A stretch of DNA of 64,000 nucleotides from an uncultured Rickettsiales bacterium (GTDB lineage: Bacteria > Myxococcota_A > UBA796 > UBA9615), in assembly GCA_964416435.1 (NCBI GenBank), contig CAYQEG010000008.1, positions 7,120-71,119 on the forward strand, written 5' to 3'. The translations under genes were made by a program, and so were the position numbers. The notes below the pieces were generated by a model. That model searched no databases and had not been told where the DNA came from. It saw nothing but the letters and a program-made list of their open reading frames with translations. Below are positions 1 through 30,232 of the stretch, in pieces; position 1 is the stretch's first letter; each line of letters opens with the position of its first letter.

Positions 1-2229
1 AGCCATCGCCCGTTGACCCGCACCGGGGACCCGACGGTTCCGGCCCCGCCCGTCAGCTGGCCGCAAGCCTCCGCCCCGATCGCCCGGGCGACCGCACAGC
101 GCACCGCCGCGTCGGCCCCCGTCGCCACGACCCGAGCGCTGACGCGCCAGGCGCGCCCCGAGACCGCCGCCCGGTTCTCGACCCCGCCCGCGTCGAGCGC
201 GATCTTCGCGGCGTCGACCCCGACCGCGTCGCAGGCCGTCGCGTCCCGCCGATCCGCCCCGACTCCGCTGAGCCGGCTGCTCGAGTCCAGCCCGTCGGTC
301 GCCAGCTCCGCGCCGGTCAGCCGCGCGGCGGCGCGCGCGTCCGAGGCGGCTCGTCCCTGGAGCGCACCTGCGTCCACCTCCCCGGTCGCCCGCACGCTCG
401 GTCGCTCGGCCGTGCCGCCGACCGCGCCGACCGCGCGTCGTCGCTTCTCGGGCCCCGGCCCCCTCGAACTGCAGCTGCCCGACGCGCCCCCCAGCTTCGC
501 GACGCCCGTCGCCGAAGCGGCCGTCGAGCCGACCATCGCGCCGACGGCGGCGCCGCCCGCCCCGACCGCGCCCGTCTCCGTGGCCAGCCTCCCGGCGGCC
601 AGCGCACCCCTCGGGGCCGGCGCCTTCGCCGGGCTGACGTCGACCGCCCGCTCCGCCGCCACGCCGGCGTCCCGGCGGGTCTCTCCGGCCAGCCGCGCGC
701 TCCAGCGCTTCGAAGCCCCGGAGTCCACCGCGATCGTGGCCCGGGCGGAAGCCCGCCGGATCACAGGTCCGCCCGCCATGCGACTCGCCGCGCGCCGCGG
801 CCTCGCGTCGGAGCCCGGCGCCGGGTTCGCTCCGACCGCATCCCTGAGCGTCGCGGCCGGCCTCGGCCGCCAGGTCGGCGTACGGCAGGCCCGACGCGGC
901 GCCTTCGACGCGCCGCTCCCGTCGATGTCGCCCGAGTGGTTCGCCCCGACGGTCGAGGCGGCAGCGCAGCAAGCCGCGCCGGCGGTCGAGGCGCCCGCCG
1001 CACCGGCGACCGCGACCCCGGTCCCGCCCGTCACCTTCCCCGCCCCGTCGGCCCCGGTCGCGCGCACGATCGCGCGGGCGTTCGAGCCGTCGGACGGCCC
1101 CTCCGCCACGCCCGCGGCCCGACGTACCGCCACCGCCTCGCCGCTGAGCCGTGCCTTCGAGCGCGCCGGTCTGCCGAGCGCGAGCGCCCCGATCGCCCGC
1201 GCCGGTGGCGGCCTCCCGCAGCCGTCCGCGACGGTCGCGGTGAGCGCCCGAGCGCTCGCCCGAACGGCCTCCGCGAAGCGCTCCGTCGCGCGCGCCCGGC
1301 CGCTCACCGGTCGGTTCGACCCGGTGCTGCCGTCGATTCCGCCCCAGGCGGTCGCCCGCGCCGAGGTCCAGGCCACCCCGGAGGCCTTCGCGGCTCGGCC
1401 CGTCACCGACGACGCCCCCGCCGCTGCTCCTTCGGCCCTCCCGGGGTCGAGCGCGCTGCGCGCCGCGGCCGCCGGCCCGGCCGCTCGCTCGACCGCCACC
1501 GTCGCCACGTCGTCGGTCGCCCGGGCGCTCGCCCGCGCGTCCACGCCCGCGGCTCAGCCCGGTTGGGACCCGTGGACCGGCGCCCCCGTCGCGACGCCCG
1601 TCGCCGGGCTGCCGTGGGCCGGTGCCCCGACGGCCGCGACCGGGTCGTCGCCGTACGTCGGCGCTTCGCTGTCCCGGACGGCGTCCCACCCGCTGACCGG
1701 CGCCCCCTCGGCCGTCGCCCGCAGCGGTGGCTGGACGGGCGCGTCGACGGCCGACCCGGCCTACCGCTCGGTCCCCGGCGCTGCCCGGGCCGACGCCAGC
1801 TACTCCGCCTGGCAGGGCGCCCCCGCCGCCCGGCGGACCGGCTTCCGCCGCGCCGCTTCGATGGAGCTGGTCAGCTTCGCGGGCCTGCCTCCCGCGGTCG
1901 CGCAGCCCGACGTCGCTCCGGTGGCCGCCTGGGCCGCGCGGTCCGTCGACCCCGCCACGGGAGCGGTCATCACGACGCCGACCGGCCCCGCCGGCTCGAC
2001 GGCCACGCGCGCGGCCGCCCGCTCCGCCGACGGCCGGCCCCCCTCCGCCGCGGCCCGACGGTCGGCCAGCCTGCCGCTCCCGACGGCCAGCGCGCCCCTC
2101 GCTCGAGGCGCCGTCCGTAGCGTCGCCGGGTCGGCCCCCCGCGGCCTCGCCCGCGCGCTGCAGCGTGACGCCGAGACGCCTTCGCGGCTCGAGCCGCGAT
2201 CGCCGGTGGGGAGCTCCCCACGGCCCTGA
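1..2229 (+). CDS. Ala/Pro/Arg/Ser-rich low-complexity protein, 5'-partial (frame open to window start)
   Basis: ORF 13..2229 begins at a TTG and its frame stays open back to nt 1. The third-codon position is very GC-rich, consistent with coding. The translation is low-complexity with recurring S/A-P-x-x-R-A motifs. No recognisable domain. Confidence 0.4.
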   Translation, partial: SHRPLTRTGDPTVPAPPVSWPQASAPIARATAQRTAASAPVATTRALTRQARPETAARFSTPPASSAIFAASTPTASQAVASRRSAPTPLSRLLESSPSVASSAPVSRAAARASEAARPWSAPASTSPVARTLGRSAVPPTAPTARRRFSGPGPLELQLPDAPPSFATPVAEAAVEPTIAPTAAPPAPTAPVSVASLPAASAPLGAGAFAGLTSTARSAATPASRRVSPASRALQRFEAPESTAIVARAEARRITGPPAMRLAARRGLASEPGAGFAPTASLSVAAGLGRQVGVRQARRGAFDAPLPSMSPEWFAPTVEAAAQQAAPAVEAPAAPATATPVPPVTFPAPSAPVARTIARAFEPSDGPSATPAARRTATASPLSRAFERAGLPSASAPIARAGGGLPQPSATVAVSARALARTASAKRSVARARPLTGRFDPVLPSIPPQAVARAEVQATPEAFAARPVTDDAPAAAPSALPGSSALRAAAAGPAARSTATVATSSVARALARASTPAAQPGWDPWTGAPVATPVAGLPWAGAPTAATGSSPYVGASLSRTASHPLTGAPSAVARSGGWTGASTADPAYRSVPGAARADASYSAWQGAPAARRTGFRRAASMELVSFAGLPPAVAQPDVAPVAAWAARSVDPATGAVITTPTGPAGSTATRAAARSADGRPPSAAARRSASLPLPTASAPLARGAVRSVAGSAPRGLARALQRDAETPSRLEPRSPVGSSPRP

Positions 2230-2915: not shown

Positions 2916-5816
2916 CTACTGGCAGCGGCCCCCGGAGAGCCCGTAGAGCTTGCTCAGTTCGGGGGCCTTGGCCTGGAAGCCGAGGTCGTCGACGAACACC
3001 GTGATGGCGTAGCAGCCCGCGGCGCGGCCCTTGAACTTCGCGCCGATCGTGTACTTCTGGACCACGCCCTTGGACGGCAGCCCATCGCTGCCCTCGTAGA
3101 CGAACTGCAGCAGGCTGTCCCCCTTGACCGTCGCCGCGGACCAGCGGCCGGTGGCGCCTCCGTCAGCGCACTCGCCCTTGTCGCCCTTGGCCGGATCGAA
3201 CGTCGGGCGCATCGGCGCGTCACCGACCCGGGCGCGACCCTCGAGCTTGGCGCCCTCGGGGTTGGCGATCATCACGCAGATCTTGTGCTCGGTGCTGACC
3301 GAGGCCGCGACGGTGCCGGTCAGGCTGACCGCCACGACGAGCTTGCTCCCGGTGGGCGGCTGGACCTCGACGTAGACCCGGTCGCCGGACGCCTGGGCCT
3401 GCAGCGCCTCGACCACCGCCGGCTCGCGCATGAGGCTCGTCACGTGGCGGGTCAGGTCCGCGGTCACCCCGGCGTCGATCGGCAGCGTCGCGACGATGGC
3501 GCCGCGGCGGCTCTGCCGGAACCGGAGGGTCCAGGTGCCGTCGGTGCTGCTCCCGCCGGAGATCTCCAGGGGGTTGGCGAACGCGTTCCGACCGGTGTCG
3601 AACGTCGCCTGTTCCACCACCTTGCCCGAGTGCCAGCGCCAACTGCCGGCCGCCGGCGGGCTGGTCGTCCCCCCGCGATCGGGCGTCGGCTCCCCACCCG
3701 GCGCGAGGTTCTCGGGCTCCTCCTCCAGGGGCGTCGGGGCCACGATCCGCAGCGACTCCGAGCGGCGCAGGAAGCTCAGCTCGTCGTCGATGAACAGCTC
3801 CGCTCCCTGCGGCAGGATGATGATGTCCGCGTCGACGACCTCACCGGGGGCTCCCCACAGCCGGTCCCAGTTCCCGCCCTGACGCTGCACTGAGAAGGTG
3901 TACACCCCGTCGCCGCCCGAGCTGCGGTCGAGCCGCTGGCGCTTCAGCCCCTCCTCCGCGATGAGCCACACCTCGATCGGCTGGATGGTCGACTCGGCGT
4001 AGGCGTCCCTCTTCTGGAGCCGCAGGAGCGCCGCGGACTCCGACTCGGCGTCGGAGAACGGGACGCAGGCGATGCCCGGGTTCCAGCCCGCGCCGCAGCC
4101 GGTGAACGTGTAGGCGTAGGGCTCGCCCAGCGCGAGCACGTCGGCCCCCGGGCCGCCGTCCCCGCCCGACTGGGTGGGGTCAGCGTCCTGGCGCGCCTGG
4201 AGCATGTTGAGCACAGCCAACCCCGCCACCAGCGCGGCGAGGGCGGCGAGCAGGAGGCCGACCAGCACGAGGCCCCGGCGGTCGCTGGCGGGAGCCTCCT
4301 CGTCTTCCTCTTCCCCCTCCTCGGCCATCGCGCCCCAGTCGATTCCGGATCCGGTCCCCTCGGGCGCCGGCGCCGACGCCCGGGCCGGGGCCGGCATCGG
4401 CTCCTCGTCGTCGAACGTCTGGGCGAGCTCCTTCATGCGCGCCGACTGGGCCGACGTGCCGATCTGGGAGGGCGGCACGGGGCTCGGAGGCAGCAAGCAG
4501 GGCTCGCGCTCGACGGTGAACACCGGCTCCGCGATCGGTTCCCAGCGGTCGTTGGGGCGCAGCGACGGCGGGGCGATCGCCTGGAGCGACATGAGCGGCA
4601 CCGGCCGGCTCATCTTGTTCTGGGCGAACACCTGGAACAGCAGCGTGTCCTCTTCGATGCCCGGGTAGAGCACCAGCCCGACCTGGAACGGCACCTCGTC
4701 GAGGTCGTACCCGACCTCCCCGAGGAACAGCGCGATGCGGATGTTGTGCTCGACCGGGTCGTAGGTGTCCCCCTCGCTGAACCGGTGGGGGGAGACGATC
4801 CGGACGACCCCCAGGATCTTCTGCTCCCCGGTGGCGGGGAACGTGGCGGCCATGAAGCGCAGCGCGCCGACCAGGTCCTGGCGCTCCTTGTCGGGGTCTT
4901 CGCCCAGGTGGCCCAGGAACCGGACGCGCTTGATCGTGACGTGGTTGCCGGTCTTGGCGCCGAGCAGGACGCCGATCCGGTCCTGGTGCGTCTCGACGAC
5001 CGCGCTGGCCATACCTTCGAGGATGGAGGCGACCGGCCCCTCGGCGCGGTCCTGCCCCAACGTCAGCCAGTCCGGCGCCTCCTTGCGGACCATGCCGACC
5101 TGGTGCAGGACCGGCGTGTCGTCCTGGGCGTCGTCGTCGTCGCCGTCCCCTTCACCCTCCTCGACCCCCTCAGCCTCTACGACTTGAAACTTCCAGGGGA
5201 GCGCCGCCGTCACCTCCCTCCGGCTCTTGGCTCCGAAGAGGTGCAGCCCCGGGAGCAGCGGCGTACCCCCGCCCCGGTTGACGAAGTAGCCGACGGACGT
5301 GTCCGCAGTGCCCAGCTTGGGCGCGAGCACCAGGGCGAACTGGTAGGGCCGGTGGAAGTCGCGGTGGGTACGGAGGTCGTACCGGGACAGGAACACCGAC
5401 ATGTTGGGGTGGGTGTGGTACCAGCCCAGGAGCAGCAGCTCCTCTCCTGCTTCCTTGGAGAGGTTCTCCATCTGGTCGATGAGGTCGTCCCAGACGGAGT
5501 ACGTGAACTTGAAGTGCACCGGCGAGCTGTCTTCGTCGCGGGCGACCGCGATGTGGCTCACCTTGATGAGCGAGTTGTCCTCGCTGGTGGTGCCCAGGAG
5601 GATCCCGGCGACCTCCTTGTCGATCTGGATCGAGCGCTGGGACTCGAACTGGAGCCGGCGCGCGACCTCCCAATCGAGGTAGAGCGTGGGCATCTCCGCG
5701 TCGATGTTCTCTTCCGCGACAGCCCCGACATACAGCGTTTTCGCAGGCACGGCGAACCGGACCGACGAGTCGCCGGTCTCCTCTTCCATGAAGATCGGTT
5801 CATCCACCGAGGTCAT
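2916..5816 (-). CDS. membrane protein with N-terminal tandem MPN+/MPN- (JAMM metalloprotease) domains and large C-terminal extracytoplasmic Cys-containing domain
   Basis: Translation from MTSVDEPIFMEEE contains the JAMM motif E...HTHPNMSVFLSRYD (HxHx7Sx2D). A second MPN-like domain without HxH follows. Then one TM segment (GLVLVGLLLAALAALVAGLAVLNML) and about 500 aa of Cys-containing domain. The ORF-track N-terminal extension to 7838 is antisense to the FHA-SLT gene and was rejected. Start ATG at 5816. Confidence 0.8.
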   Translation of the reverse strand: MTSVDEPIFMEEETGDSSVRFAVPAKTLYVGAVAEENIDAEMPTLYLDWEVARRLQFESQRSIQIDKEVAGILLGTTSEDNSLIKVSHIAVARDEDSSPVHFKFTYSVWDDLIDQMENLSKEAGEELLLLGWYHTHPNMSVFLSRYDLRTHRDFHRPYQFALVLAPKLGTADTSVGYFVNRGGGTPLLPGLHLFGAKSRREVTAALPWKFQVVEAEGVEEGEGDGDDDDAQDDTPVLHQVGMVRKEAPDWLTLGQDRAEGPVASILEGMASAVVETHQDRIGVLLGAKTGNHVTIKRVRFLGHLGEDPDKERQDLVGALRFMAATFPATGEQKILGVVRIVSPHRFSEGDTYDPVEHNIRIALFLGEVGYDLDEVPFQVGLVLYPGIEEDTLLFQVFAQNKMSRPVPLMSLQAIAPPSLRPNDRWEPIAEPVFTVEREPCLLPPSPVPPSQIGTSAQSARMKELAQTFDDEEPMPAPARASAPAPEGTGSGIDWGAMAEEGEEEDEEAPASDRRGLVLVGLLLAALAALVAGLAVLNMLQARQDADPTQSGGDGGPGADVLALGEPYAYTFTGCGAGWNPGIACVPFSDAESESAALLRLQKRDAYAESTIQPIEVWLIAEEGLKRQRLDRSSGGDGVYTFSVQRQGGNWDRLWGAPGEVVDADIIILPQGAELFIDDELSFLRRSESLRIVAPTPLEEEPENLAPGGEPTPDRGGTTSPPAAGSWRWHSGKVVEQATFDTGRNAFANPLEISGGSSTDGTWTLRFRQSRRGAIVATLPIDAGVTADLTRHVTSLMREPAVVEALQAQASGDRVYVEVQPPTGSKLVVAVSLTGTVAASVSTEHKICVMIANPEGAKLEGRARVGDAPMRPTFDPAKGDKGECADGGATGRWSAATVKGDSLLQFVYEGSDGLPSKGVVQKYTIGAKFKGRAAGCYAITVFVDDLGFQAKAPELSKLYGLSGGRCQ

Positions 5817-5957
5817 GCGCGCCGCTCTGGGGTGGGCGTTCGGCCGAAATTGACAAGCAACACGGCCTCTTACAGACTTCCGATTGATATCACGGGGGGT
5901 CGGTGTGCCACAAGACGGGCGCCCCGCTGGCCCACCCCCCCGAAGAACGCTGGGACC
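5817..5957. promoter_or_regulatory. divergent intergenic promoter region (JAMM gene / FHA-SLT gene)
   Basis: 141-bp gap between divergently oriented starts at 5816 (-) and 5958 (+). Confidence 0.3.
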
Positions 5958-7676
5958 ATGCCAGACCGGATCCGCTTCACCCTCATCGAGGACGGCGAAG
6001 ACGTACGCCCGTACGACTTCGATACCCAGACCGTTCAGATCGGTGCGGATCCCGATCGCGGTGACAACCTCCTGATCCCGCTGCCGCCCCGGCTGCGCCA
6101 CGTGCGCGCCAAGATCCTCCGCCAGGCCGACTACGTCGAACTCGAGGTCAAGGGCGGCCCCATCTGGGTCCAGGGCTCCCGGCTGGAGGAGGGCGACGCC
6201 GTCGAGCTGAACGTCGGCGACCTGCTCGTCTTCGGCACCCGCAAGCCCCGCGGCGTCCGCCTCCGGTTCGAGTACGCCACCGAAGCCGCGATCGTGATCG
6301 ACGACGTGGCGGACTGGACCGCCTCCGCCGCCCCCAAGAAGAAGCGAGGTTCGGCGGCCGAGGACGACGCGTTCGCGTTCGAGGAGGAGGTCGACCCGAC
6401 CGCGGGGATGAACCCGTACCAGAAGGCCCTGTTCTGGTACCGGAAGCAGTACGCGAAGTTCGCCAAGTGGCGCAAGAAGGCGGCCCGGGTCAGCTACTGG
6501 GTCAGCACGATCGGGATCGTCTGGTCCAAGGTCGGCAAGGTCGTCACCCTGGTCGGCGGCGTGGCGATCCTCGGAGGCGGCTGGTTCATGGAGAGCAAGG
6601 ACCGCAAGGAGGCCGAAGAGGCGGAGGAGGTGGCCGTCACCGACGAAGCGGCCGCCGTCCGGGCGGAGCGGGAGGCGTTCCTCGCCCAGACCGAGATCCA
6701 GCGCCAGATGCGCGAGTGCAACTGCCCCGGCTCCCCGGGCGTCGACCAGGTCGAGCTCGACGGCGCTGAGGCGCTGCTGACGGCGTTCGCGTCGGACGAG
6801 ACGTTCGCCCCCCAGCGCCGCATCCCGATGCCCGGCGGCGAATCCCAGAGCCTCGCCGGCCTGGTCGGCGGCTACATCGTGACCGCCTCGCGCAGCAAGA
6901 CGACCATTCGCGCGACGCGCGACCGCATCTGCAGCTCCCTGGACGGTCGGCGCATGCAGACGGTCGACACCGAGCGCCAGAACCTCGGGCTCGACCCCGT
7001 GTACAGCTACCTGCCGTTCGTCGAGTCGAACTGGTGCAGCCTGTCGGTCGATATCTACGGTCGTCGGGGGATGATGCAGCTGACGCCCTCTTCGGCGCGT
7101 CGGGCGTTCGAGCTCGTCGACGGCATGACCCCGGACATCCCGAAGGTCGACGTCGAAGAGCACATGGCCTGGCTGGAGGAGAAGGGCGGCCGCTACGGCG
7201 GCCCCTACGGCCTGCTCGCCAAGTGCCCCCAGGGCGCCCGGGACGAGTACTCGCAGACCTTCTACGAGGGGGTGAAGCACCCCGACCACCCCGAGCGCAT
7301 CGACCCGGAGGACCCCCGGACCGACTGGCAGGCGTCGATGAAGGCGGGGCTGCTGCTGCTGCAAGAGATCGACGAGGGCTACCGGGAGCGCGGTTTCCGC
7401 CCCGTCGACAGCGTGCTGCTGACCCTCGCCGCCTACGACATGGGCCACGACGGGGTCGAGGCCTGGATCAAGGCGGCGGCCAAGGGCTACAAGATCGAGG
7501 ACCGCGCCGCGCTGTCCTACACCCACGTGTACGGCGGCGCGATCGCGGTCGCCGCCAAGGAGGACGACCCCGACCGGGCCGCGCGCATCCTCGAGGGCGC
7601 CAAGGCGCCGGCGAAGGCGATGGCCTTCTTCCTGGTCGCGCAGACCAACCCCGAAATGCTGGCTTGCGAGGACTGA
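5958..7676 (+). CDS. bitopic protein: N-terminal FHA-like domain, TM helix, C-terminal lytic transglycosylase (SLT) domain (paralog 1)
   Basis: MPDRIRFTLIEDGEDVRPYDFDTQTVQIGADPDRGDNLLI..VGDLLVFG..LRFEY has an FHA-like pattern. TM segment WVSTIGIVWSKVGKVVTLVGGVAILGGGWF. SLT motifs FVESNWCSL..GRRGMMQLT and AAYDMGHDGV. 60-70% identical to the next gene. Confidence 0.8.
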   Translation: MPDRIRFTLIEDGEDVRPYDFDTQTVQIGADPDRGDNLLIPLPPRLRHVRAKILRQADYVELEVKGGPIWVQGSRLEEGDAVELNVGDLLVFGTRKPRGVRLRFEYATEAAIVIDDVADWTASAAPKKKRGSAAEDDAFAFEEEVDPTAGMNPYQKALFWYRKQYAKFAKWRKKAARVSYWVSTIGIVWSKVGKVVTLVGGVAILGGGWFMESKDRKEAEEAEEVAVTDEAAAVRAEREAFLAQTEIQRQMRECNCPGSPGVDQVELDGAEALLTAFASDETFAPQRRIPMPGGESQSLAGLVGGYIVTASRSKTTIRATRDRICSSLDGRRMQTVDTERQNLGLDPVYSYLPFVESNWCSLSVDIYGRRGMMQLTPSSARRAFELVDGMTPDIPKVDVEEHMAWLEEKGGRYGGPYGLLAKCPQGARDEYSQTFYEGVKHPDHPERIDPEDPRTDWQASMKAGLLLLQEIDEGYRERGFRPVDSVLLTLAAYDMGHDGVEAWIKAAAKGYKIEDRAALSYTHVYGGAIAVAAKEDDPDRAARILEGAKAPAKAMAFFLVAQTNPEMLACED

Positions 7677-7683
7677 CGCGACC

Positions 7684-9393
7684 ATGCCCAGGCTGATCCG
7701 GTTCACGCTGATCGAAGACGAGCAGGACGTGCGTCCGTACGACTTCGACACGCAGACCGTGCAGATCGGCGCCGACCCCGATCGCGGCGACAACCTGCTG
7801 ATCGACCTGCCGCCCCGGCTCAAGCACGTGCGCGCCAAGGTCTTCCGCCAGGAGGACTACGTCGAGATGGAGGTCAAGGGCGGCCCCATCTGGGTGGGCG
7901 GCAGCAAGCTCGAGGACGGCGACGTCGTCGAGCTCAACGTCGGCGACCTGCTGATCTTCGGCACCAAGAAGCCTCGCGGCGTGCGCCTGCGGTTCGAGTA
8001 CGCCACCGAAGCGTCGATCTTCATCGACGACGTGGCCGACTGGAGCGCATCGGCGGCGCCCAAGAAGAAGCGCGGGAAGTCGGCCGAGGACGACCTCACC
8101 TTCGACGAGGAGAAGGACCCCACCGAGGGGATGAACCCCTACCAGAAGGGCGTCTACTTCTACCGTCAGCAGTACGCGAAGTTCGCGAAGTTCCGCAAGA
8201 AGGCGTCACAGCTCGGCTACTGGACCAGCCTCGCCGCGGTCCTGATGAGCAAGGCCCGGGGCATCCTGATGCTCGGGGCCGGCCTCGGCGCCCTCGGATT
8301 CGGCTGGTACAACGCCCACCTGGGGGCCGAGAAGGCCGGGGACGAGCAGGTCATCGCGGAGTCCCGCACCCAGCAGGCCATTCTCGCGCGGGACGAGGCG
8401 CTGCAGGCCCGGGCCGAGCTCGAGGGGCTGCAGGCGGAGTGCGGCTGCGGCCCGGGTGACGAAGGCGGCTCGGCGGTCGCCGCCACCGAGGCGCTCACCA
8501 CCTACTTCGACGACGACAACGGCAACTTCGCTCCCGAGCGCGCCGTCGCCATGCCCGACCGCCAGATGCGCAGCATGGGCGGGCTGGTGGGCCGCTACAT
8601 GACGGTCGCGAGCCGGAACAACCGGCTGATCAACACGACCATCGACCGGGTCTGCGGCGGCGACAAGGACCGCATGGAGGTGGTGCAGCGGGCGCTGGGC
8701 ACATACGACCTGCACGAGGTCTACAGCTTCATCCCGTTCGTCGAGTCCCAGTGGTGTGAGCTCGCCATCTCGTTCACCGGGCCGCGCGGGATGATGCAGT
8801 TCACCCGCGCCACGGCGAAGGAGGCGTTCGGGAAGATCGACCCGACCCAGGCCAACATCCCCAACTTCCCGTTCAAGTCCCACTACGACTGGATGCTTTC
8901 CAAGAGCGGCAAGTACGGCGGCTACTACTCCATGCTCGCCCAGTGCCCCGCCACGGTCCGCGCCGACTACGTCCGCACCTTCTACGACGGGCAGACCAAC
9001 CCCGACTATCCGCGCCGCACCGACCCCCGCGACCCCCGCACCGACTGGGAGTGGGCGTCCAAGGCGGCGTTCAGCTGGCTGGAGACGCTGGACAGCTACT
9101 ACAAGGGCAAGGGCTACGGGGAGACCGACTCGGCGATGCTCGCGATGGCCGCCTACAACCAGGGGCGTTCGATGGTCCAGCGCTGGATCGACAAGGCCGA
9201 GGAGGGCTACCCCGACCAGGCCGACAGCCTGACCTACACGCACATCTACGGCGGCGGCATGAAGCTGCTGATGGAAGAGAAGGACGCGGAACAGAAGCGC
9301 CGCATCAAGGAGGGGATGGAGTACCCCCTCAAGACGTTCGGCTACTACCTGGTGACCGCGCCGAAGCTGGACGCGAAGCGCTGCCGGGACTGA
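7684..9393 (+). CDS. FHA-like / TM / lytic transglycosylase (SLT) protein (paralog 2)
   Basis: MPRLIRFTLIEDEQDVRPYDFDTQTVQIGADPDRGDNLLI.. FHA-like N-terminus. TM WTSLAAVLMSKARGILMLGAGLGALGFGWY. SLT catalytic motifs FVESQWCELAISFTGPRGMMQFT and AAYNQGRSMV, YTHIYGG. Confidence 0.85.
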   Translation: MPRLIRFTLIEDEQDVRPYDFDTQTVQIGADPDRGDNLLIDLPPRLKHVRAKVFRQEDYVEMEVKGGPIWVGGSKLEDGDVVELNVGDLLIFGTKKPRGVRLRFEYATEASIFIDDVADWSASAAPKKKRGKSAEDDLTFDEEKDPTEGMNPYQKGVYFYRQQYAKFAKFRKKASQLGYWTSLAAVLMSKARGILMLGAGLGALGFGWYNAHLGAEKAGDEQVIAESRTQQAILARDEALQARAELEGLQAECGCGPGDEGGSAVAATEALTTYFDDDNGNFAPERAVAMPDRQMRSMGGLVGRYMTVASRNNRLINTTIDRVCGGDKDRMEVVQRALGTYDLHEVYSFIPFVESQWCELAISFTGPRGMMQFTRATAKEAFGKIDPTQANIPNFPFKSHYDWMLSKSGKYGGYYSMLAQCPATVRADYVRTFYDGQTNPDYPRRTDPRDPRTDWEWASKAAFSWLETLDSYYKGKGYGETDSAMLAMAAYNQGRSMVQRWIDKAEEGYPDQADSLTYTHIYGGGMKLLMEEKDAEQKRRIKEGMEYPLKTFGYYLVTAPKLDAKRCRD

Positions 9394-9413
9394 GCGCCCC
9401 GACGGGGCCGCGC

Positions 9414-10268
9414 TCAGCCTCCGTTGACGAACTGCAGGAACTCGTCCTCGCTGCAGTCGACCAGCTGAACGCCCATGCCCGAGTCGACGCCCTTGGACGC
9501 CTTGCGGGTCCATCGGACCTCCGCCTGCAGGGCGAACTCGCGGCCCGTGACCGGGTGCACGATGAACAGGGACAGCATGTCCCCCTTGGGGAGCGGCTTG
9601 GGGTGCGCGATGAACATGCCGCCGCGGCTGACGTTCTGCGTGTAGAAGTCGCGCAGCGAACCTTCGGTGCGCATGCGGACGCGAAAGCGTCCGAGCTTAC
9701 GGGGGCCACCTCGGCGGGTCAGCTTGACCATCTGCTCCTCGGGCAGATGCTCGCGGCGCTCGGGATCCGGCGGGGCGGGCAGCGTGCCGGTCGACAGCTG
9801 CTGCAGGTACATCGCCCACTTCGCCTTCAGCGTGGAGTCCATCAGGAAGAACCGCAGCCCCATGCCGGGCATGCCGCCGCAGAAGGCGGCCTCGCCGGGG
9901 GAGACGACGCGCTCGACGGTGCACAGCCCGCGCAGCACCGGTCCACCGGGGAGCACCGAGACGATCTGGATGAGCTCGCCCACCGGCACGTGGTCGGGCG
10001 ACTCCACGAAGATGCCCTCGACGCTGACGTCGACGGCCGTGCGGCGCCGGTCCCGTCCGGCCCATCGGAGCGTGACGTGCAGGTCCACCGGGTAGCGCTC
10101 GCAGGGCACCACGCCGTTCCCCGGGGCCACCTGGAGGTGGTACGGCTCGTCCCCCGACGCGCCGGATCGTCCCAGCTCCGGGGCGTCCTGCGCTGTCTCC
10201 TCGTTCGCGACCTCGGGGGTCGGCTCGGGGGCGGTGACCGGTTCGATCCGGGCAGCAGTCGCGTGCAT
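9414..10268 (-). CDS. tandem PilZ-domain protein (c-di-GMP receptor-like)
   Basis: Two PilZ signatures: ..RDRRRTAVDVSVEG.. and ..RFRVRMRTEG..QNVSRGGMFI.. (RxxxR ... D/NxSxxG). Confidence 0.7.
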   Translation of the reverse strand: MHATAARIEPVTAPEPTPEVANEETAQDAPELGRSGASGDEPYHLQVAPGNGVVPCERYPVDLHVTLRWAGRDRRRTAVDVSVEGIFVESPDHVPVGELIQIVSVLPGGPVLRGLCTVERVVSPGEAAFCGGMPGMGLRFFLMDSTLKAKWAMYLQQLSTGTLPAPPDPERREHLPEEQMVKLTRRGGPRKLGRFRVRMRTEGSLRDFYTQNVSRGGMFIAHPKPLPKGDMLSLFIVHPVTGREFALQAEVRWTRKASKGVDSGMGVQLVDCSEDEFLQFVNGG

Positions 10269-10419
10269 GGGGCATCTCCCGCGCGGGTACGGAACAACGA
10301 ACCCGCTCCAGGAGTCCTATCGGCGGCCGCTCACCCGACTTGACCCGGGAGCCGCAGATGTCTACACCCTGGGCCGTCCGGGGGCGCCCGCACGCACACG
10401 CGAGGGAACGAATTTGGCC

Positions 10420-11370
10420 ATGATCCAGGTGAGATCGCTGACCCGAAGGTACGGCTCGCTGGTCGCCGTCGGGGACGTCTCGTTCGAGGTCGCCGACGGC
10501 GAAGTGCTCGGCTTCCTCGGCCCCAACGGGGCGGGCAAGACCACGACGATGCGCATCCTGACCGGCTCGCTCGGCGCGACGACCGGCGAGGTGTTCGTCG
10601 CGGGGCACGACATGCGCACCGCGTCACGCCAGGCGCGAGGGGAGATCGGCTACCTGCCCGAGTCCCCTCCCCTGTACCGCCAGATGACGGTCCGCAGCTA
10701 CATCGACTTCGCCGCCCGCATCCGGGGCATCGGCGGTCGAGACCGCCGGGCCAAGGTCGACCGGGCCATCGAGCGCGCCGGGCTGACCGACGTCTCGGGT
10801 CGCCTCATCGACCACCTGAGCAAGGGCTTCCGGCAGCGGGTCGGCCTCGCCCAGGCGCTGGTCCACGAACCCAGGCTGCTGATCCTCGACGAGCCGACCT
10901 CGGGGCTGGACCCTGCCCAGGTCGCCGAGATCCGGGACCTCATCCACGAGCTCCGAGGCGACCACACGATCGTGCTGTCGACCCACATCCTGTCCGAGGT
11001 GCGAGCCACCTGCGACCGGGTGCTGATCATCAACAAGGGTCGACACATCGCCGGCCCCGCGACCGAAGACGAGCTGCGGGAGCAGCTGGGCGCGGCGCGC
11101 ACCATCCGGTTGGAGCTGGCCCGCGCCGACGACGGCACCGCCGACGCGCTGGCCGCGGTGACGGGCGTCGAGGCGGTCGAAGACGTGGGCGACGGCGCGT
11201 TCGACGTCACGACCGGCAGCGAGGACGCCCGCGAGGCGGTCAACGCGGCCGCGACGGCGTTCGGGCTGCTGGAGAGCCGCTCCCGCGGCGGACTGGAGGA
11301 GCTGTACCTCCGGGCCGTGAGCGAAGACCCGCCCGACGCCGACGGCGAGGACGAGGAGGCGGTCGCATGA
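10420..11370 (+). CDS. ABC transporter ATP-binding protein (GldA-like)
   Basis: MIQVRSLTRRYG.. Walker A GPNGAGKTT, signature LSKGFRQRVGLA, Walker B LLILDEPTSGLD. RBS GAGGGAA upstream. The ORF-track start at 10234 was rejected as an upstream extension. Confidence 0.85.
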   Translation: MIQVRSLTRRYGSLVAVGDVSFEVADGEVLGFLGPNGAGKTTTMRILTGSLGATTGEVFVAGHDMRTASRQARGEIGYLPESPPLYRQMTVRSYIDFAARIRGIGGRDRRAKVDRAIERAGLTDVSGRLIDHLSKGFRQRVGLAQALVHEPRLLILDEPTSGLDPAQVAEIRDLIHELRGDHTIVLSTHILSEVRATCDRVLIINKGRHIAGPATEDELREQLGAARTIRLELARADDGTADALAAVTGVEAVEDVGDGAFDVTTGSEDAREAVNAAATAFGLLESRSRGGLEELYLRAVSEDPPDADGEDEEAVA

Positions 11371-12125
11371 TGACCTGGCACATCGCCCGTCGGGAGCTCA
11401 TCGCCTACCTGACCTCCCCGTTCGCGTGGGTCGTGAGCGCCGCGTTCCTGTTCATGAACGGCTTCTTCTTCGCGATCTACGTCGGCTCGTACGCCGCCTA
11501 CTCGGCCGAGGCCGCCGCCTACGGGCAGGAGGTGTCGGTCGCGGTGGAGGTGGTGCAGGCCTTCGTCGGCACCTGCGGCCTGCTGCTGGTGCTCTTCGCC
11601 CCGCTGCTGACCATGCGCTCGCTCGCCACCGAGCAGCGGGACGGCTCGCTGGCGCTGCTCCTCAGCTCGCCGGTCAGCTCGTGGGAGATCGTGCTCGGCA
11701 AGCTCGCCGGGCTGGTCGGCTTCTGGCTGGCCCTGTTCGTCGTCGGCATGGGCTACGTCCCGCTGCTGCTCTCCTGGTACGGCGGCCTGCAGGCCGGTCC
11801 GCTCTTCTCGGCGACCCTCGGCATGGTGCTGCTGGCGACGTTCGCCTCGGCCGTCGGGCTGGCCGCCAGCTCGCTGAGCGGCAGCCAGATGATGGCCGCG
11901 GTCGTCTCCTGGGCGGTCCTGCTGTTCCTGTGGATCGTCGGCTTCCTGGCCGAGTTCGACGTCCCGATCATCAAGACGATCGGCGAGTGGCTCGGCATGG
12001 CCAGCCACTACGACGAGATGGCCAAGGGGCTCATCACGGTGACCGACCTGTCCGCCTTCGTGCTGCTCGGTTTCGTCTTCTTGTTCGTCGCGCATCAGCG
12101 CGTCGAGTCCCACCGGTGGAAGTAG
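11367..12125 (+). CDS. ABC-2 family permease (GldF-like)
   Basis: ATGA overlap with the ATPase gene. Six predicted hydrophobic segments. N-terminus MMTWHIARRELIAYLTSPFAWVV is typical of ABC-2/GldF permeases. Confidence 0.8.
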   Translation: MMTWHIARRELIAYLTSPFAWVVSAAFLFMNGFFFAIYVGSYAAYSAEAAAYGQEVSVAVEVVQAFVGTCGLLLVLFAPLLTMRSLATEQRDGSLALLLSSPVSSWEIVLGKLAGLVGFWLALFVVGMGYVPLLLSWYGGLQAGPLFSATLGMVLLATFASAVGLAASSLSGSQMMAAVVSWAVLLFLWIVGFLAEFDVPIIKTIGEWLGMASHYDEMAKGLITVTDLSAFVLLGFVFLFVAHQRVESHRWK

Positions 12126-12135
12126 GGGCCGGGCC

Positions 12136-13710
12136 ATGATCGCGACCGTCGTCGGACGAATCCTTGGCGCGCTGGGCCTGATGGCCGCGTGCCTCTATTT
12201 CCTGGTCGGCTACTTCCTGCCCGAGGTCTCGGGGGTCGCCTGGATCGGCGCCACCGCGGCGATCGGGATCGCCGCCTGGGTCTACCTGGACTGGGACGCC
12301 CTGGCCCGCTTCTTCGGCTCGCGGGGGGGCCGCGAGCAGATCATGTCCTGGGTCCTCGTGATCGTGGTCGCCGGCATCTGCATGCTCCTGATGAGCATCG
12401 CCGAGCGCACCGACAAGCGTTGGGACCTGACCGAGGGCCGGATCCACTCGTTGGACGAGCGCACGGTCGGGGTGCTCGGTGACGTCCCCGACGGCATCGA
12501 GGTCAGCGTGCAGGCCTTCTACGTCGCCTCGTTCGACCAGATGGAGGACCGCAAGCGGCGCGAATTCCAGCGCCTGCTGGAGGCCGCGGAGGCGACCGGC
12601 ACGTCCGTCGAGTTCGACCTCGTCGACCCGGAGTTGGACCCGCTGGTCGCGTCCCGGGCGGAGGTCAACAGCAACGGCACGGTGATCGTGACCGCCCGCC
12701 CATCGGCCGGCGGGGAGCCGCGCACTGAGCGGCTGTACAGCCCCGACGAGCAGGAGCTGACCAACGCGCTGGTCCGGGTGATGAGCGCCCGGCGCAGCAA
12801 GATCGTGTTCGTCAGCGGCCACGGCGAGCGGGAGCCGTCCACCCCGGGCGAGCGCGGGCTCAGCCAGCTGGCGCAGCACCTGCGCAGCCTCGGGTTCGAG
12901 ACCGGCACCTGGAACACGGCGACCGAGCCGGACCTGCCGGGGGACGCCGACGTGCTGATCGTCGCCGGCCCGACGCTCCCCCTGGAGAGCCGCGAGGCCG
13001 GCCAGATCCGGCAATGGGTGGAGGACGGCGGCGCCCTGGCGCTGCTCGCCGAGCCGCCGATGCCCGGTCAGGGCGACGGCCGCACGGGCCTGGAGGGGGC
13101 GCTCCTCAGCTGGGGGCTCAAGCTCCGGGACGACATCGTGCTCGACGAGCTCGGCGCGCGGATCACCAACGACCCGTCGGCTCCCATCGCCGACACGTTC
13201 GGATTCCACGAGACGACCCAGGGCTTCGACCTGCCGGTGATCTTCTCGGTCGCCCGCTCGATCGAGGAGGCCAACGCGCTGCCGGAGCAGGTGACGGTGT
13301 TCCACCTCGCCAAGACGGGCAGCCGCGCCTGGGGCGAGACGGACCTCGAGGCGGACGAGGTCTCGTTCGACGAGGACGAGGACGTCGAGGGGCCGCTGAC
13401 CCTGATCGCGGTCGCCGAGCTGCACCGGGAGAAGGGCGCCAGCGGGCGCGTGCTGGTGGCCGGCGACGTCGACTGGCTCACCGACGGGCTGGTCGTGACC
13501 CGGGGCAACCTGGACTTCGCGGCGCGGACCATCGGCTGGCTCGGCCAGGCCGACGACGTCATCCAGCTGCCCCCGCGCGAAGGCGGCGGCGAAGGGCTGG
13601 ACCTGTCGCCCCTGCAGATGCTGCTGACGGTGTTCATCAGCGTCTTCGCGGTGCCCGGCGCCGCGGCGGCGGCCGGGGTGATCGTCTGGATCTGGCGGCG
13701 CGGGCTCTGA
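12136..13710 (+). CDS. GldG-like ABC-transport auxiliary protein
   Basis: Follows the ATPase and permease. N-terminal and C-terminal TM helices flank a large soluble domain, the GldG-family architecture. Confidence 0.7.
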   Translation: MIATVVGRILGALGLMAACLYFLVGYFLPEVSGVAWIGATAAIGIAAWVYLDWDALARFFGSRGGREQIMSWVLVIVVAGICMLLMSIAERTDKRWDLTEGRIHSLDERTVGVLGDVPDGIEVSVQAFYVASFDQMEDRKRREFQRLLEAAEATGTSVEFDLVDPELDPLVASRAEVNSNGTVIVTARPSAGGEPRTERLYSPDEQELTNALVRVMSARRSKIVFVSGHGEREPSTPGERGLSQLAQHLRSLGFETGTWNTATEPDLPGDADVLIVAGPTLPLESREAGQIRQWVEDGGALALLAEPPMPGQGDGRTGLEGALLSWGLKLRDDIVLDELGARITNDPSAPIADTFGFHETTQGFDLPVIFSVARSIEEANALPEQVTVFHLAKTGSRAWGETDLEADEVSFDEDEDVEGPLTLIAVAELHREKGASGRVLVAGDVDWLTDGLVVTRGNLDFAARTIGWLGQADDVIQLPPREGGGEGLDLSPLQMLLTVFISVFAVPGAAAAAGVIVWIWRRGL

Positions 13711-13725
13711 GCACCGAGGGCGCGG

Positions 13726-13977
13726 TCAGCCGTTGCAGCGGGCGTCGACGTACCGGGACCAGGCGACCGACATCGGCGCGCGCTGGTCGCCCTGGATGCT
13801 CCACGCCATCGTGCAGCCGTCGGGGAACTCGAGCTCCTCCAGCTGCAGGGGGTCCAGGACCCCCGGCTCGCTGGTGAACGTCGGGTCGCCGTCCGCGCGG
13901 CTCGGCGTGAGCATCAGCGCGATGCAGAGGAACAGCCCGGTCAGGGCTCCGATGGTGGCGGCTTCGTACCTGGTCAT
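13726..13977 (-). CDS. small secreted protein (signal peptide, 2 Cys)
   Basis: Internal start MTRYEAATIGALTGLFLCIALMLTPSRA preceded by RBS AGGAGGG. The longer ORF-track N-terminus was rejected. Confidence 0.45.
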   Translation of the reverse strand: MTRYEAATIGALTGLFLCIALMLTPSRADGDPTFTSEPGVLDPLQLEELEFPDGCTMAWSIQGDQRAPMSVAWSRYVDARCNG

Positions 13978-14112
13978 GGCGTTACCCTCCTGACGAGGGA
14001 AGGGAGCAACGGCCGTGCCAGGATCCGCGATCGACGGACATCGCGGCTGTCGGGCGATCTCGAGGCGCTCGTCGGGGGGTGTCCGGACGTCCGCGGACAC
14101 GTCGTCGGACGG

Positions 14113-14808
14113 TCAGTCGGGGAGGAACTCCCAGTTGAACGCCACGTTCCCCGACTCGCCGGACTCGTCGTAGTAGTCCGTCACCTGCATCTTCAGGCAC
14201 CGCCCGTCGTGGGTCTCGACGACGTAGACGTGGCCGTAGGGGAACACCTCGTGGCCGCTGAAGCTGTACTCGAACCAGAAGGTGAGCGACGGGTTGTAGT
14301 CGATCTCCGCGAACGGGCCGGCCCCGTCGGGGTCGTCGAGCAGGTCGGGCACCCAGCCGTCATCGACGGTCGGCGTGCTGCCGCCGCAGCTGAGCACCCC
14401 GGTGTTGTCGGTGCCGTCGGCCTCGTCGAAGTCGCCGCAGCGGGCGGTGAAGTCGGCGAGGTCGGCCCACTCCTCGACCAGCCCCTCGACCGCGAGGATG
14501 GCCCCCCGGCCGACCGAGTCGGAGGACGCCGCGGTACCCGAGTTGGTGGCGATCACCCACTGGGAGATCGCCAGGTCCCAGCCCTCGTGCTGGGAGGGGT
14601 CGTCGGTGACGATCTCCTCTCCCGCGTCGTCCAGGAGCACCGCGTCCTCGTCGAAGGAGTAGAGCTTCCAGCTGCCCCGCTCCTGGCTGACCACGGTGAC
14701 CGCGCCGTCCACGACGCCGTCCCCCTTGCCGCACCCAGGCGTGGCCTGCAGTCCGAGCAGCGAGACGGCGACGACGGTGGCGGGCAGGAGGCTGCGGGCT
14801 CGGGTCAC
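14113..14808 (-). CDS. secreted lipoprotein, tentatively HmuY-like
   Basis: Signal plus lipobox-like LLGLQATPGCG. GWDLAISQWVIATNSG and a C-terminal ..CLKMQVTDYYDESG segment are reminiscent of the HmuY family. Weak assignment. Confidence 0.45.
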   Translation of the reverse strand: MTRARSLLPATVVAVSLLGLQATPGCGKGDGVVDGAVTVVSQERGSWKLYSFDEDAVLLDDAGEEIVTDDPSQHEGWDLAISQWVIATNSGTAASSDSVGRGAILAVEGLVEEWADLADFTARCGDFDEADGTDNTGVLSCGGSTPTVDDGWVPDLLDDPDGAGPFAEIDYNPSLTFWFEYSFSGHEVFPYGHVYVVETHDGRCLKMQVTDYYDESGESGNVAFNWEFLPD

Positions 14809-15650
14809 CGACGGGCCCGAGGCTTGGTGGGGGCGTCACCCCGGCGGTGGTCCGCTCCGTCGACCTGCACGAACTCGCACATCGAGCAGAGCCGGCTGTA
14901 GATCCGCTCCCCGATGCGCTCCACGAGCGACGGCATCTTGCTGCCGGCGGCGCCGGTCTTGCGGGAGTCGTAGCCGGGGTGATAGCCGCCGCCGTGGGAC
15001 GCCGCGGCGGTGTCGTGGGGGTCGAAGTTGGTGGTGCAGAGGGTGACCTTGCCGGCGTTGTAGCGGCGGCTCACCAGGTCATCGAGCACGGTCTCTTCCC
15101 ACTCGGTGCCCCGGCCCTTGCCGAGCTCGTCGATGACGAGCAGCTCGACGTCCACCAGGGGCATCATCAGGGCTGCGTCACCGCTGCCCGAGGAGAAGCT
15201 GCGCTTGAGGTCGGCGAGCAGGTTGCCGTAGTCGACGAAGCGGCAGCCGACCCCCTTGCGCAGCGTCAGCTCCCGGAAGATCGACACCGCGAGGTGCGTC
15301 TTGCCGGTGCCCACGGGGCCCCAGAACAGCAACCCCCGGTCGACCTTGGGGTAGCTCAGGGCGAACTCCTCGGCCCGGCGCTGGGCCATCTGCTGGGTCT
15401 TGGTGCGCGGCTTGAAGGAGCCGAGGGTGGCGCCCGCGAAGCGCTTGCCGATCTGCGCCTGGTTGAACATCTCGAGCCGCCGGCGGGCCTTGCGGCAGGG
15501 GCACGGGGCGAACACCTCGTACTCGCCGTCGAGGTGGTAGCGGCCTCCGGCGTCGTCACACTCGGGGCACCGCCAGTCCGGCGGATCGAACTCGGCCCGG
15601 CAGATGGCGCCGTCGGCGACGACGACGGGGGGCGGGGGGCGGAACGTCAC
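14805..15650 (-). CDS. DnaC/DnaI/IstB-like AAA+ helicase-loader ATPase with N-terminal zinc ribbon
   Basis: Walker A FWGPVGTGKTHLAVSIF, Walker B LLVIDELGKG. N-terminal CRAEF..CPEC..CPC zinc-binding region. GTG start at 15650 overlaps the upstream stop as GTGA, with GGAAGGA RBS. The ORF-track extension to 15851 was rejected. Confidence 0.7.
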   Translation of the reverse strand: MTFRPPPPVVVADGAICRAEFDPPDWRCPECDDAGGRYHLDGEYEVFAPCPCRKARRRLEMFNQAQIGKRFAGATLGSFKPRTKTQQMAQRRAEEFALSYPKVDRGLLFWGPVGTGKTHLAVSIFRELTLRKGVGCRFVDYGNLLADLKRSFSSGSGDAALMMPLVDVELLVIDELGKGRGTEWEETVLDDLVSRRYNAGKVTLCTTNFDPHDTAAASHGGGYHPGYDSRKTGAAGSKMPSLVERIGERIYSRLCSMCEFVQVDGADHRRGDAPTKPRARR

Positions 15651-30231: not shown

Positions 30232-30232
30232 C

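Follow-up and report, generated by a model that had tools for sequence, protein, structure and literature searches.

The gene at 2916..5816 (− strand) in the 64-kb stretch of DNA analyzed here, referred to as the window, encodes a 966-aa membrane protein of the JAB family in which an MPN+ (JAMM) domain with intact catalytic residues, a second domain of MPN fold that lacks them (MPN−), a transmembrane (TM) helix, and periplasmic β-sandwiches follow each other in this order. Pfam, hydrophobicity, and predicted structures bear out this architecture, which an earlier note had proposed from the sequence letters. With slightly better than even confidence, we read the protein as an isopeptidase (deconjugase) that is tethered to the membrane and serves a lineage-specific ubiquitin-like protein (Ubl) system encoded in the same conserved ~25-kb neighborhood. 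In our literature searches, neither a tandem MPN protein from bacteria nor a membrane-anchored JAB protein came up.

The gene comprises 966 codons plus the stop codon, and its 52 full-length homolog clusters have lengths of 933-1037 aa. We placed the start at 5816 because the ATG at this position fits the conserved N-terminus of the homologs, M-[ST]-S-V-D-E-P-I-F; a longer mechanical open reading frame (ORF) reaching 7838 was rejected as a high-GC artifact.

The MPN+ domain covers residues ~40-215 (5172..5699, − strand). Residues 60-156 match Pfam JAB PF01398 with an E-value of 3.6e-15 and 56.2 bits, while the curated cutoff is 22.5 bits. As claimed in the earlier note, the JAMM motif is intact: in an alignment of 33 sequences, the catalytic E68 (5613..5615, − strand) and H134, H136, S144, and D147 of the metal-binding motif H134-T-H136-PNMSVFL-S144-RY-D147 (5376..5417, − strand) have the canonical spacing (E…HxHx7Sx2D) and are invariant (33/33). 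This strict conservation argues for catalysis and against a pure scaffold, and we regard the domain as a putative Zn-dependent JAMM isopeptidase. It is also the most conserved part of the protein, with a mean pairwise identity of 76% compared with 37-43% for the ectodomain. The best PDB sequence matches were the Caldiarchaeum Rpn11-like protein (6fjv), AMSH-LP, and Rpn11, with 6fjv as the top solved structure (E 2.4e-7, residues 63-164); the solved bacterial proteins Cap3 and BilC were absent from these matches. Using PADLOC and NCBIfam, we obtained partial matches to JAB models (1e-8) and to 6A-MBL cap2_3 (8.8e-6) with scores far under the family cutoffs (24.5 bits vs 320).

An acidic low-complexity linker of sequence EAEGVEEGEGDGDDDDAQDD (residues ~213-233, 5118..5180, − strand), which is poorly conserved (42% identity in the family alignment), connects the MPN+ domain to the MPN− domain (residues ~236-420, 4557..5111, − strand). 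The suggestion that the second domain is MPN-like and devoid of HxH held, in that structure prediction assigns it an MPN fold at high confidence and the HxH/S/D ligands are missing. Specifically, GVVRIVSP stands in the strand that corresponds to GWYHTHP, the metal-binding His/His/Asp and the catalytic Ser are lost, and the only His nearby, H344, is semi-conserved (26/33 sequences). An HMM profile of the domain gave only a chance match in the PDB (E 0.56), Pfam gave none at E≤10, and HMMER against 1.84 billion representatives recovered only its own family. A local hhalign comparison of the MPN+ and MPN− domains was colinear and weak (E 0.003, probability 11%). By analogy to known MPN pairs, the MPN− domain may be a built-in non-catalytic partner that pairs intramolecularly with the MPN+ domain.

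The juxtamembrane cytoplasmic segment that follows (residues 421-514, 4275..4556, − strand) is for the most part variable and acidic; a G-I-D-W patch is conserved, and the mean identity is 30% (alignment A1). The single TM helix expected from the earlier note was recovered at residues 515-536 (4209..4274, − strand), the sole Kyte-Doolittle peak >1.6 in the protein. Because an RR pair is located on the N-side of this helix and six invariant Cys residues are found solely on its C-side, the sequence suggests an N-in/C-out topology. In the predicted structure, the ectodomain consists of two β-sandwich modules with a disordered linker between them (pLDDT 85), i.e., module A (residues ~560-695, 3732..4139, − strand) with C574 and C584, and the β-rich module(s) B (residues ~726-966, 2919..3641, − strand) with C847, C883, C935, and C965; all six Cys are invariant in alignment A1. 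Thus, the Cys-containing extracytoplasmic domain described previously is present, and its size is ~430 aa rather than ~500 aa.

The start of the JAB gene is separated by 11.7, 12.3, and 13.4 kb from the genes for E2, Ubl, and E1, respectively, in agreement with the ~13 kb estimated previously. All genes of this E1-E2-Ubl operon are on the − strand. The UBC-like E2 (HPN…C122; 17504..18109) matches Pfam UQ_con just under the 27-bit cutoff (E 1.5e-5, 25 bits), has an invariant WHPN…GFVC motif (alignment A4), and is 73-87% identical across loci. The 97-aa YukD-like Ubl (18129..18422; Pfam YukD, E 5.8e-6, 27.4 bits, cutoff 27) is 90-96% identical in all loci, and its C-terminus reads …RLVMEHIPA-stop with no propeptide in 17/17 recovered homologs. 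A polytopic membrane protein whose C-terminal domain is rich in Cys and His (18542..19216) is a candidate E3; it has a conserved C…CH…CH…H…CxxC pattern, did not match Pfam RING or Prok-RING_1, and sits where the Chloroflexia locus L019 has a TM protein with Pfam Prok-RING_1. The E1 (19209..20564) is a ThiF-family adenylating enzyme (Pfam ThiF, E 1.1e-39) with partial PADLOC matches to E1-E2 and BilD. The operon is headed by CIS13-, CIS12-, and CIS11-like (baseplate J) genes (20574..26226; Pfam Baseplate_J and Tail_P2_I; NCBIfam CIS13, CIS12, and TIGR02243). Scanning the operon, we identified no peptidase encoded within it; the gene under study is the only JAB ORF within the 64 kb.

Every E2-centered locus with enough flank has one and the same arrangement of genes toward the JAB gene, CIS11-12-13 / E1 / TM-CysHis / Ubl / E2 / g338 / g225 / HmuY / ABC / PilZ / SLT / JAB, and the genes past CIS11 vary between loci. 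In this block, g338 is outer-membrane β-barrel-like, and an AAA ATPase is also present. The distance from the JAB gene to E2, Ubl, the E3 candidate, and E1 is 7.6-13.6 kb in the window, in L009, L013-L017, and L041, and in the P0023 contig, to which both L004 and L037 belong. Overall, the JAB gene has E1, E2, and Ubl nearby in nine of the ten informative JAB lineages; in the exception, lineage P0015 (L001/L002), PhoD occupies the E2 position, and there is no E2 within 10 kb. The earlier note had named a lack of co-occurrence with E1/E2 loci in other genomes as part of what would refute its reading, and the recurring neighborhood did not bear out such a lack. The JAB gene is outside the E1-E2 operon (~8-14 kb away, with envelope genes on both strands in between), and the link therefore rests on a conserved neighborhood in one clade. 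In favor of the link, the JAB family (52 clusters) and the E2 family (27 clusters, all ≥73% identical) are alike narrow, and the JAB-family loci with an organism title are all from marine or deltaproteobacterial/Myxococcota-type MAGs.

The nearest JAB proteins outside the family, which are from Chloroflexota, Entotheonella, and Oscillibacter and share 31-35% identity with it, are encoded together with E1 homologs in six loci. Three of these contain E1, Ubl, and E2 (L019, L020, and L025), L021 contains E1 and E2, and L022 and L023 contain E1 alone. One of them, L019, was read from end to end and proved to be a compact operon (E1 / TM-Prok-RING_1 / YukD-Ubl::E2 / Ubl / JAB / TM-FHA / VWA) of the order E1–RING–Ubl–E2–JAB; the window has this order too, with the Cys/His-rich E3 candidate in the RING position and the JAB gene after E2. 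Orthologue-like operons of this kind, combining the JAB subtype with E1, E2, and Ubl, occur in other phyla. No signal of the MPN− domain was obtained in the 632-aa Oscillibacter JAB protein, which we examined as a further carrier.

Because the JAB gene is consistently near a Ubl operon that is without a protease of its own, its product is probably the tag remover of the Ubl system. In the mechanism that we propose, the E1, the membrane-anchored Cys/His-rich E3 candidate, the 97-aa YukD-like Ubl, and the UBC-type E2 would make up this system, and the active JAMM domain, in the cytoplasmic N-terminal half of the JAB protein, would hydrolyze the bonds between Ubl and its targets. The fused MPN− domain may contribute scaffolding, substrate positioning, or regulation, as Rpn8, CSN6, and Abraxas do for Rpn11, CSN5, and BRCC36. 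The single TM helix would hold the enzyme at the inner membrane beside the membrane-anchored E3 candidate, and the disulfide-bonded Ig-like ectodomain could anchor it to, or sense, an envelope partner. The earlier note had offered "missing Ubl peptidase or processing enzyme" as one role. The operon link and the status as sole JAB ORF favor the peptidase part; a processing role is unlikely, because the Ubl always ends in …HIPA-stop and leaves nothing for a maturase to remove. Counting against a deconjugase, the Ubl ends in Pro-Ala rather than Gly-Gly, which would be an unusual cleavage site for a JAMM enzyme.

The tightest partner of the JAB gene is not in the Ubl operon. Two tandem SLT paralogs (5958..7676 and 7684..9393, span 5958..9393, + strand; Pfam SLT, E 2.4e-6 and 1.1e-11) are transcribed divergently, and the first begins 141 bp from the JAB gene. 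In each paralog, a conserved N-terminal cytoplasmic domain is followed by a TM segment and then by an SLT lytic transglycosylase domain in the periplasm. The earlier note had paired the JAB gene with divergent FHA-SLT proteins; the divergent arrangement and the SLT domain stand, and the FHA part was not confirmed, as the Pfam FHA match was under threshold (E 0.22), a profile search with the N-terminal domain against the PDB was without match, and hhalign against the bona fide FHA domain of L019 gave no match. The divergent promoter region (5817..5957, unstranded) contains a block, CTTGT…N…GTGATATCAA, with the palindrome TGATATCA at 5885..5892, that is invariant in 8 loci. The palindrome occurs once in the window (0.06 expected by chance), and a regulatory motif common to the JAB promoter and the Ubl operon was rejected on that basis. 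Since the SLT gene shares this conserved region with the JAB gene, the JAB protein could have an envelope function instead. It would then be an independent envelope signaling or remodeling protease that, together with the SLT proteins and perhaps PilZ/ABC/HmuY-like proteins, cleaves a cytoplasmic substrate other than Ubl when it receives a cue from the periplasm, and the Ubl operon would be a mere neighbor. In agreement with this, SLT adjoins the JAB gene in most loci, the JAB and SLT proteins share one layout, with the N-domain in the cytoplasm, a single TM segment, and the C-domain in the periplasm, and the large ectodomain suggests sensing or anchoring. Moreover, bacterial JAB domains do act on non-Ubl substrates (Cap3, lambda K family). 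However, L009 and L017 are without SLT yet keep JAB, E2, Ubl, and E1, the out-of-family JAB proteins sit with E1 homologs and mostly also with E2 or Ubl, and the Ubl operon would otherwise be without a deconjugase. These points weaken this alternative, which the earlier note had also raised, and we consider it unlikely.

Still less likely, in our assessment, is that the JAB protein is a structural or regulatory membrane part of a contractile-injection-like or baseplate-derived apparatus to which the CIS11-13-like genes belong, with the MPN pair as a scaffold or as a processor of baseplate proteins rather than of Ubl. The CIS11/12/13-like genes share an operon with E1, Ubl, and E2 and are always in the block of the JAB gene, the block also contains the lytic transglycosylase, the β-barrel-like g338, and the AAA ATPase, and the lambda-type pair of I (Ubl) and K (JAB) reportedly provides a precedent for a JAB-Ubl role in tail assembly. 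Against this, neither the ORFs scanned in the first 55 kb of the window nor the region downstream of the JAB gene in L001 contains sheath, tube, spike, or gp25-like genes, and the strict conservation of the catalytic residues speaks against a pure scaffold. We rejected a contractile injection system locus, as only CIS11/12/13-like genes were present among the ORFs scanned. Genes downstream of JAB in the homolog loci (123, 161, 462, 315, 140, and 516 aa) were considered as missing CIS parts and had no NCBIfam match to these; a weak VWA match was the only one observed among downstream genes. Finally, we judge it improbable that the synteny is gene order inherited in a narrow clade and that the function is unrelated to any neighbor: all family members are from one marine MAG group and the window block holds at least six transcription units of alternating orientation, but identity among the JAB proteins of syntenic loci is just 46-62%, a sign of deep divergence, the regions that flank the block differ (POR, PhoD, or RskA), and compact operons in other phyla independently bring this JAB subtype together with E1, E2, and Ubl.

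If the deconjugase reading is correct, a bacterium too has evolved MPN+/MPN− pairing, in fused form, and a Ubl system can be membrane-organized, its E3 candidate and its deubiquitinase (DUB) both being tethered and the DUB bearing a large periplasmic domain, and can be wired to baseplate-like genes. Taking it further is speculative, and we hold the following extension as doubtful, if conceivable: the covalently fused Rpn11-Rpn8-type pair would face a membrane-bound E3 at the inner membrane in a Ubl write/erase cycle, in which the periplasmic Ig-like ectodomain gates the eraser and the targets are CIS11-13 or envelope (SLT/FHA-like) proteins. Such a system would place Ubl conjugation in a bacterium under trans-envelope control. 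Independently of this extension, the window system, with E1, E2, an extremely conserved 97-aa Ubl ending in Pro-Ala, and one candidate DUB, would offer a compact model for pseudo-MPN regulation of a JAMM enzyme.

Bacterial Ubl conjugation (CBASS Cap2/3, Bil, Bub) is now an active field, and operons for E1, E2, Prok-RING_1, YukD-like Ubl, and JAB proteins have reportedly been predicted in prokaryotes. The window resembles such operons, as represented by L019, in the set and order of components, with a ThiF-type E1, a membrane-anchored putative Zn-finger protein, a YukD-like Ubl, a UBC-type E2 with HPN…C, and a PF01398-type JAB domain, at identities of 31-35% for the JAB domains, 32-34% for E1, and 26-34% for Ubl. 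It differs in that an MPN− domain, a TM helix, and an ectodomain of ~430 aa are fused to the JAB domain, that the JAB gene is 8-14 kb from E2, that the E3 candidate does not match Prok-RING_1, that the Ubl ends in Pro-Ala, and that CIS11-13-like genes head the operon. The bacterial defense JAB peptidases Cap3 (CBASS), BilC (Bil), and the 6A-MBL JAB-E1 fusion are likewise tied to E1/E2-dependent conjugation, which they reverse or prime, and are soluble with a single MPN domain; to our knowledge, all characterized bacterial deconjugases are soluble, single-domain proteins. Unlike in Bil and CBASS, E1 and E2 in the window are separate genes with no Cap2 fusion and no four-gene Bil operon, and no CD-NTase was found among the scanned neighbors. 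Based on these differences and on matches that are only partial and sub-threshold in PADLOC/NCBIfam, an identity as Bil (BilABCD) or CBASS Cap2/Cap3 was rejected.

CsRpn11 of Caldiarchaeum subterraneum is the DUB of an archaeal Ub/E1/E2/RING operon. As with CsRpn11 (6fjv/6fju), the window JAB protein accompanies an E1/E2/E3/Ub-type set. CsRpn11 is soluble, single-domain, and monomeric in solution and matures a Ub precursor (PMC6043591), whereas the window Ubl has no extension to remove. The prokaryotic JAMM proteins that cluster nearest Rpn11 are those in Ub/E1/E2 operons (Fuchs et al. 2018, PMC6043591), and MPN+/MPN−-type pairing is stated to be unknown in archaea (PMC6043591). Like Rpn11-Rpn8, CSN5-CSN6, and BRCC36-Abraxas/KIAA0157, the window protein combines an intact JAMM domain with a ligand-less MPN domain, a resemblance at the level of structure or sequence; no PCI or coiled-coil partners as in the eukaryotic heterodimers were seen. 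Pairing of this kind is regarded as a eukaryotic hallmark (proteasome lid, CSN, BRISC). In contrast to the eukaryotic heterodimers, both MPN domains of the window protein are part of one bacterial, membrane-anchored polypeptide, in which an acidic linker joins them.

Mechanically called ORFs overran the real genes because the G+C content of the window is 67-81%; we set the limits of the JAB gene using third-position GC profiles and the N-termini of homologues. The gene extends over 2916..5816 on the reverse strand and encodes 966 aa (N-terminus MTSVDEPIF). Using Pfam, we identified a JAB1/MPN domain (PF01398) at residues 60-156 (E 3.6e-15, 56 bits, compared with 26.7 bits for the Prok-JAB model). 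The protein contains the full JAMM signature, E68…H134-T-H136-PNMSVFL-S144-RY-D147, and the five JAMM residues are unchanged across 33 aligned homologues, among which the MPN+ domain evolves more slowly than any other part of the protein. Among solved structures, the top sequence match (6fjv, E 2.4e-7) is the Rpn11-like deubiquitinase from the ubiquitin operon of Caldiarchaeum, and further top matches are AMSH-LP, Rpn11, BRCC36, and CSN5; bacterial Cap3 and BilC are not among the matches. In membership tests, the protein was assigned to JAMM/MPN+ and not to Bil or CBASS.

An acidic linker (residues ~213-233) precedes a second, strongly conserved block (residues ~236-420; mean pairwise identity 64%). 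We detected no family for this domain using Pfam at E≤10 or a PDB profile search, neither of which gave a meaningful match, and its profile searched against 1.84 billion representative proteins returned nine matches, every one from its own family. When the two domains were aligned locally by profile-profile comparison, the match was colinear but weak (E 0.003) and paired EVAGILLG with DRIGVLLG, LLGWYHTHP with ILGVVRIVSP, and PYQFALVLAP with PFQVGLVLYP. In the register of this weak alignment, R-I-V-S stands where the HxH pair would be, and the aligned homologues have no conserved metal triad in the second domain. Therefore, the HxH-less MPN-like domain proposed in the earlier note is borne out at the level of the predicted fold, by which the domain is assigned to MPN−. 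Searching 5.8 billion proteins, we identified 52 clusters of the family, all of 933-1037 aa with the same architecture and named only "Mov34/MPN/PAD-1 family" or "proteasome lid subunit RPN8/RPN11". Among species-representative genomes, the family was detected in marine MAGs only, labelled Deltaproteobacteria, Myxococcota, or "uncultured". We found no description in the literature of a bacterial fused MPN+/MPN− protein or of a membrane-anchored JAB protein with an ectodomain.

The sole hydrophobic segment (residues 515-536) is preceded by Arg-Arg, and the six invariant cysteines (C574, C584, C847, C883, C935, and C965) are on its C-terminal side only. Together, these sequence features suggest an N-in/C-out topology, and we regard the architecture as a whole as close to certain. 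The ectodomain may tether the predicted enzyme to an envelope partner or allow it to respond to one. Two tandem SLT lytic transglycosylase paralogues (5958..7676 and 7684..9393, forward strand) are divergent from the JAB gene and have the 141-bp promoter region at 5817..5957 in common with it. In this region, the perfect palindrome TGATATCA at 5885..5892 is part of a CTTGT…GTGATATCAA block. The palindrome does not vary among eight homologous loci, occurs once in 64 kb vs 0.06 times expected, and is probably a promoter or operator of the divergent pair. Because the SLT proteins have the same inferred layout as the JAB protein (N-in, one TM helix, and a periplasmic C-terminal part) as well as this common promoter region with its invariant palindrome, they would be obvious candidates for the envelope partner, although two homologous loci (L009 and L017) have no SLT gene. 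The SLT genes are in tandem in the window and in L005 and single in most loci, and an alignment of the first 120 aa of five further copies gave 68-85% identity with the first of the two paralogues in the window. The FHA label initially given to these proteins was not confirmed (Pfam E 0.22; nothing by PDB profile or by hhalign against a true FHA domain).

Further envelope neighbors follow at 9414..17466, i.e., genes for a PilZ protein, a GldG-type ABC transporter, an HmuY-like protein, an IstB/DnaC-like AAA ATPase, a 225-aa protein, and a protein that has a signal peptide and weak similarity to outer-membrane β-barrels. The order of these genes between the E2 and JAB genes is preserved from locus to locus, suggesting a module associated with the envelope. 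On the other side, an Ala/Pro-rich ORF (13..2229, forward strand, 81% G+C), cut by the window start, is convergent with the JAB gene, with a 214-aa gene between them. Its counterparts in homologous loci encode 1300-1500 aa without a Pfam match and are followed by conserved genes for 123, 161, ~465 (weak VWA), ~312, ~142, and ~516+ aa.

The order in the window is CIS11-CIS12-CIS13, E1, Cys/His protein, Ubl, E2, envelope-type genes, SLT pair, and JAB. The Ubl conjugation operon (reverse strand) is led by genes for CIS11-like baseplate J (22603..26226; 1207 aa with an ~880-aa extra N-terminus), CIS12-like (21550..22602), and CIS13-like (20574..21533) proteins. As the ORFs scanned in the window and homologous loci include no sheath, tube, or spike genes, this partial CIS set is, among those ORFs, a baseplate-only module coupled to the Ubl system. 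Then follow a ThiF-type E1 (19209..20564), a polytopic membrane protein whose tail is rich in Cys and His (18542..19216), a 97-aa YukD-like Ubl (18129..18422), and a UBC-type E2 (17504..18109; WHPN…GFVC). The Cys/His protein has no Pfam RING match, and its C-terminal part carries the conserved pattern C…CH…CH…H…CxxC; it is likely a membrane E3, because it occupies the slot of a TM and Prok-RING_1 (Pfam) protein in the Chloroflexia locus L019. The operon lacks any further peptidase, and the 64 kb contain a single JAB ORF, that of the JAB gene. Elsewhere, the window encodes PFOR subunits, an Rnf-like complex (RnfC/FMN-binding), and several c-type cytochromes of the multihaem kind, one of which has collagen-like repeats (27239..55018); thus, it is an ordinary respiratory chromosome and not a prophage.

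We then compared the window proteins with JAB-centred loci (10-kb flank) using tblastn. In L009 and L013-L017, E2, Ubl, the Cys/His protein, and E1 are all within this flank. Scanning metagenome contigs around E2 yielded 15 loci; those with enough flank all keep the same order toward the JAB gene, and L041 is long enough to include the JAB gene. L037 and L004 are one contig, which places E2 13.6 kb from the gene for the JAB-family member P0023, earlier seemingly without E2. The sole exception is P0015 (L001/L002), where PhoD holds the E2 position. Thus, the association of the JAB gene with the E1-E2-Ubl locus put forward previously recurs in the loci long enough to show it, P0015 excepted, and the lack of co-occurrence that would have spoken against it was not observed. 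Synteny ends at CIS11, the window's PFOR genes are absent from all other loci, and the JAB proteins of syntenic loci are only 46-62% identical; accordingly, the conserved block is more than residual genome collinearity.

The nearest out-of-family JAB domains (31-35% identity), recovered by pattern scan, are from Chloroflexota (L019-L022), Entotheonella (L025), and Oscillibacter (L023). An E1 homologue is present in each of these six loci, accompanied by Ubl and E2 homologues in L019, L020, and L025 and by E2 in L021; in this comparison, L022 and L023 had E1 only. The L019 operon (6097..12781) encodes a ThiF E1, a TM-Prok-RING_1 protein, a YukD-Ubl::UQ_con E2 fusion, a free YukD Ubl ending in …TAG, a PF01398 JAB, a TM-FHA protein, and a VWA protein. 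It shares with the window the order E1, membrane Zn-finger protein, Ubl, and E2, but its JAB gene immediately follows E2, whereas in the window envelope genes lie between the two. The membrane partners with FHA and VWA domains in L019 recall the SLT (possibly FHA-like) and VWA genes found close to the JAB gene of the Myxococcota type. In L023 (2952..8385), two tandem E2-like genes, a gene for a 632-aa protein whose JAMM domain is N-terminal and whose ~440-aa C-terminus has no family assignment, and a gene for a 238-aa JAMM protein precede E1, making it another multi-JAB Ubl locus. On the most parsimonious view, the lineage of the Myxococcota type inherited an E1/RING/Ubl/E2/JAB-type system, reportedly predicted computationally by Burroughs, Iyer, and Aravind in 2011. 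Its JAB gene would later have gained the MPN− domain, TM helix, and ectodomain and been parted from E2 by envelope genes.

As for function, the JAB protein could process the Ubl, as the earlier note considered, or remove it from conjugates. In 17 of 17 recovered homologues, the Ubl ends in …EIRLVMEHIPA followed immediately by a stop codon, i.e., in Pro-Ala without Gly-Gly and without a propeptide to remove, which argues against a processing enzyme and for a deconjugase, with the caveat that a Pro-Ala end is unusual for a JAMM substrate. Across loci, identity is 90-96% for Ubl and 73-87% for E2, compared with 45-75% for neighboring proteins; together with the slow evolution of MPN+, this would fit components that must recognize each other. 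On balance, we lean slightly toward the JAB protein being the deconjugase of this Ubl system. Because both the candidate E3 and the JAB protein would be anchored in the membrane with their catalytic parts in the cytoplasm, conjugation and deconjugation may take place on its inner face.

According to Fuchs et al. 2018 (PMC6043591), the Rpn8-Rpn11-type organization is not known in archaea. The JAB protein is similar in predicted function to JAB deconjugases from prokaryotic E1/E2/RING/Ubl systems and to the Caldiarchaeum enzyme CsRpn11; in architecture, it resembles eukaryotic MPN+/MPN− pairs.
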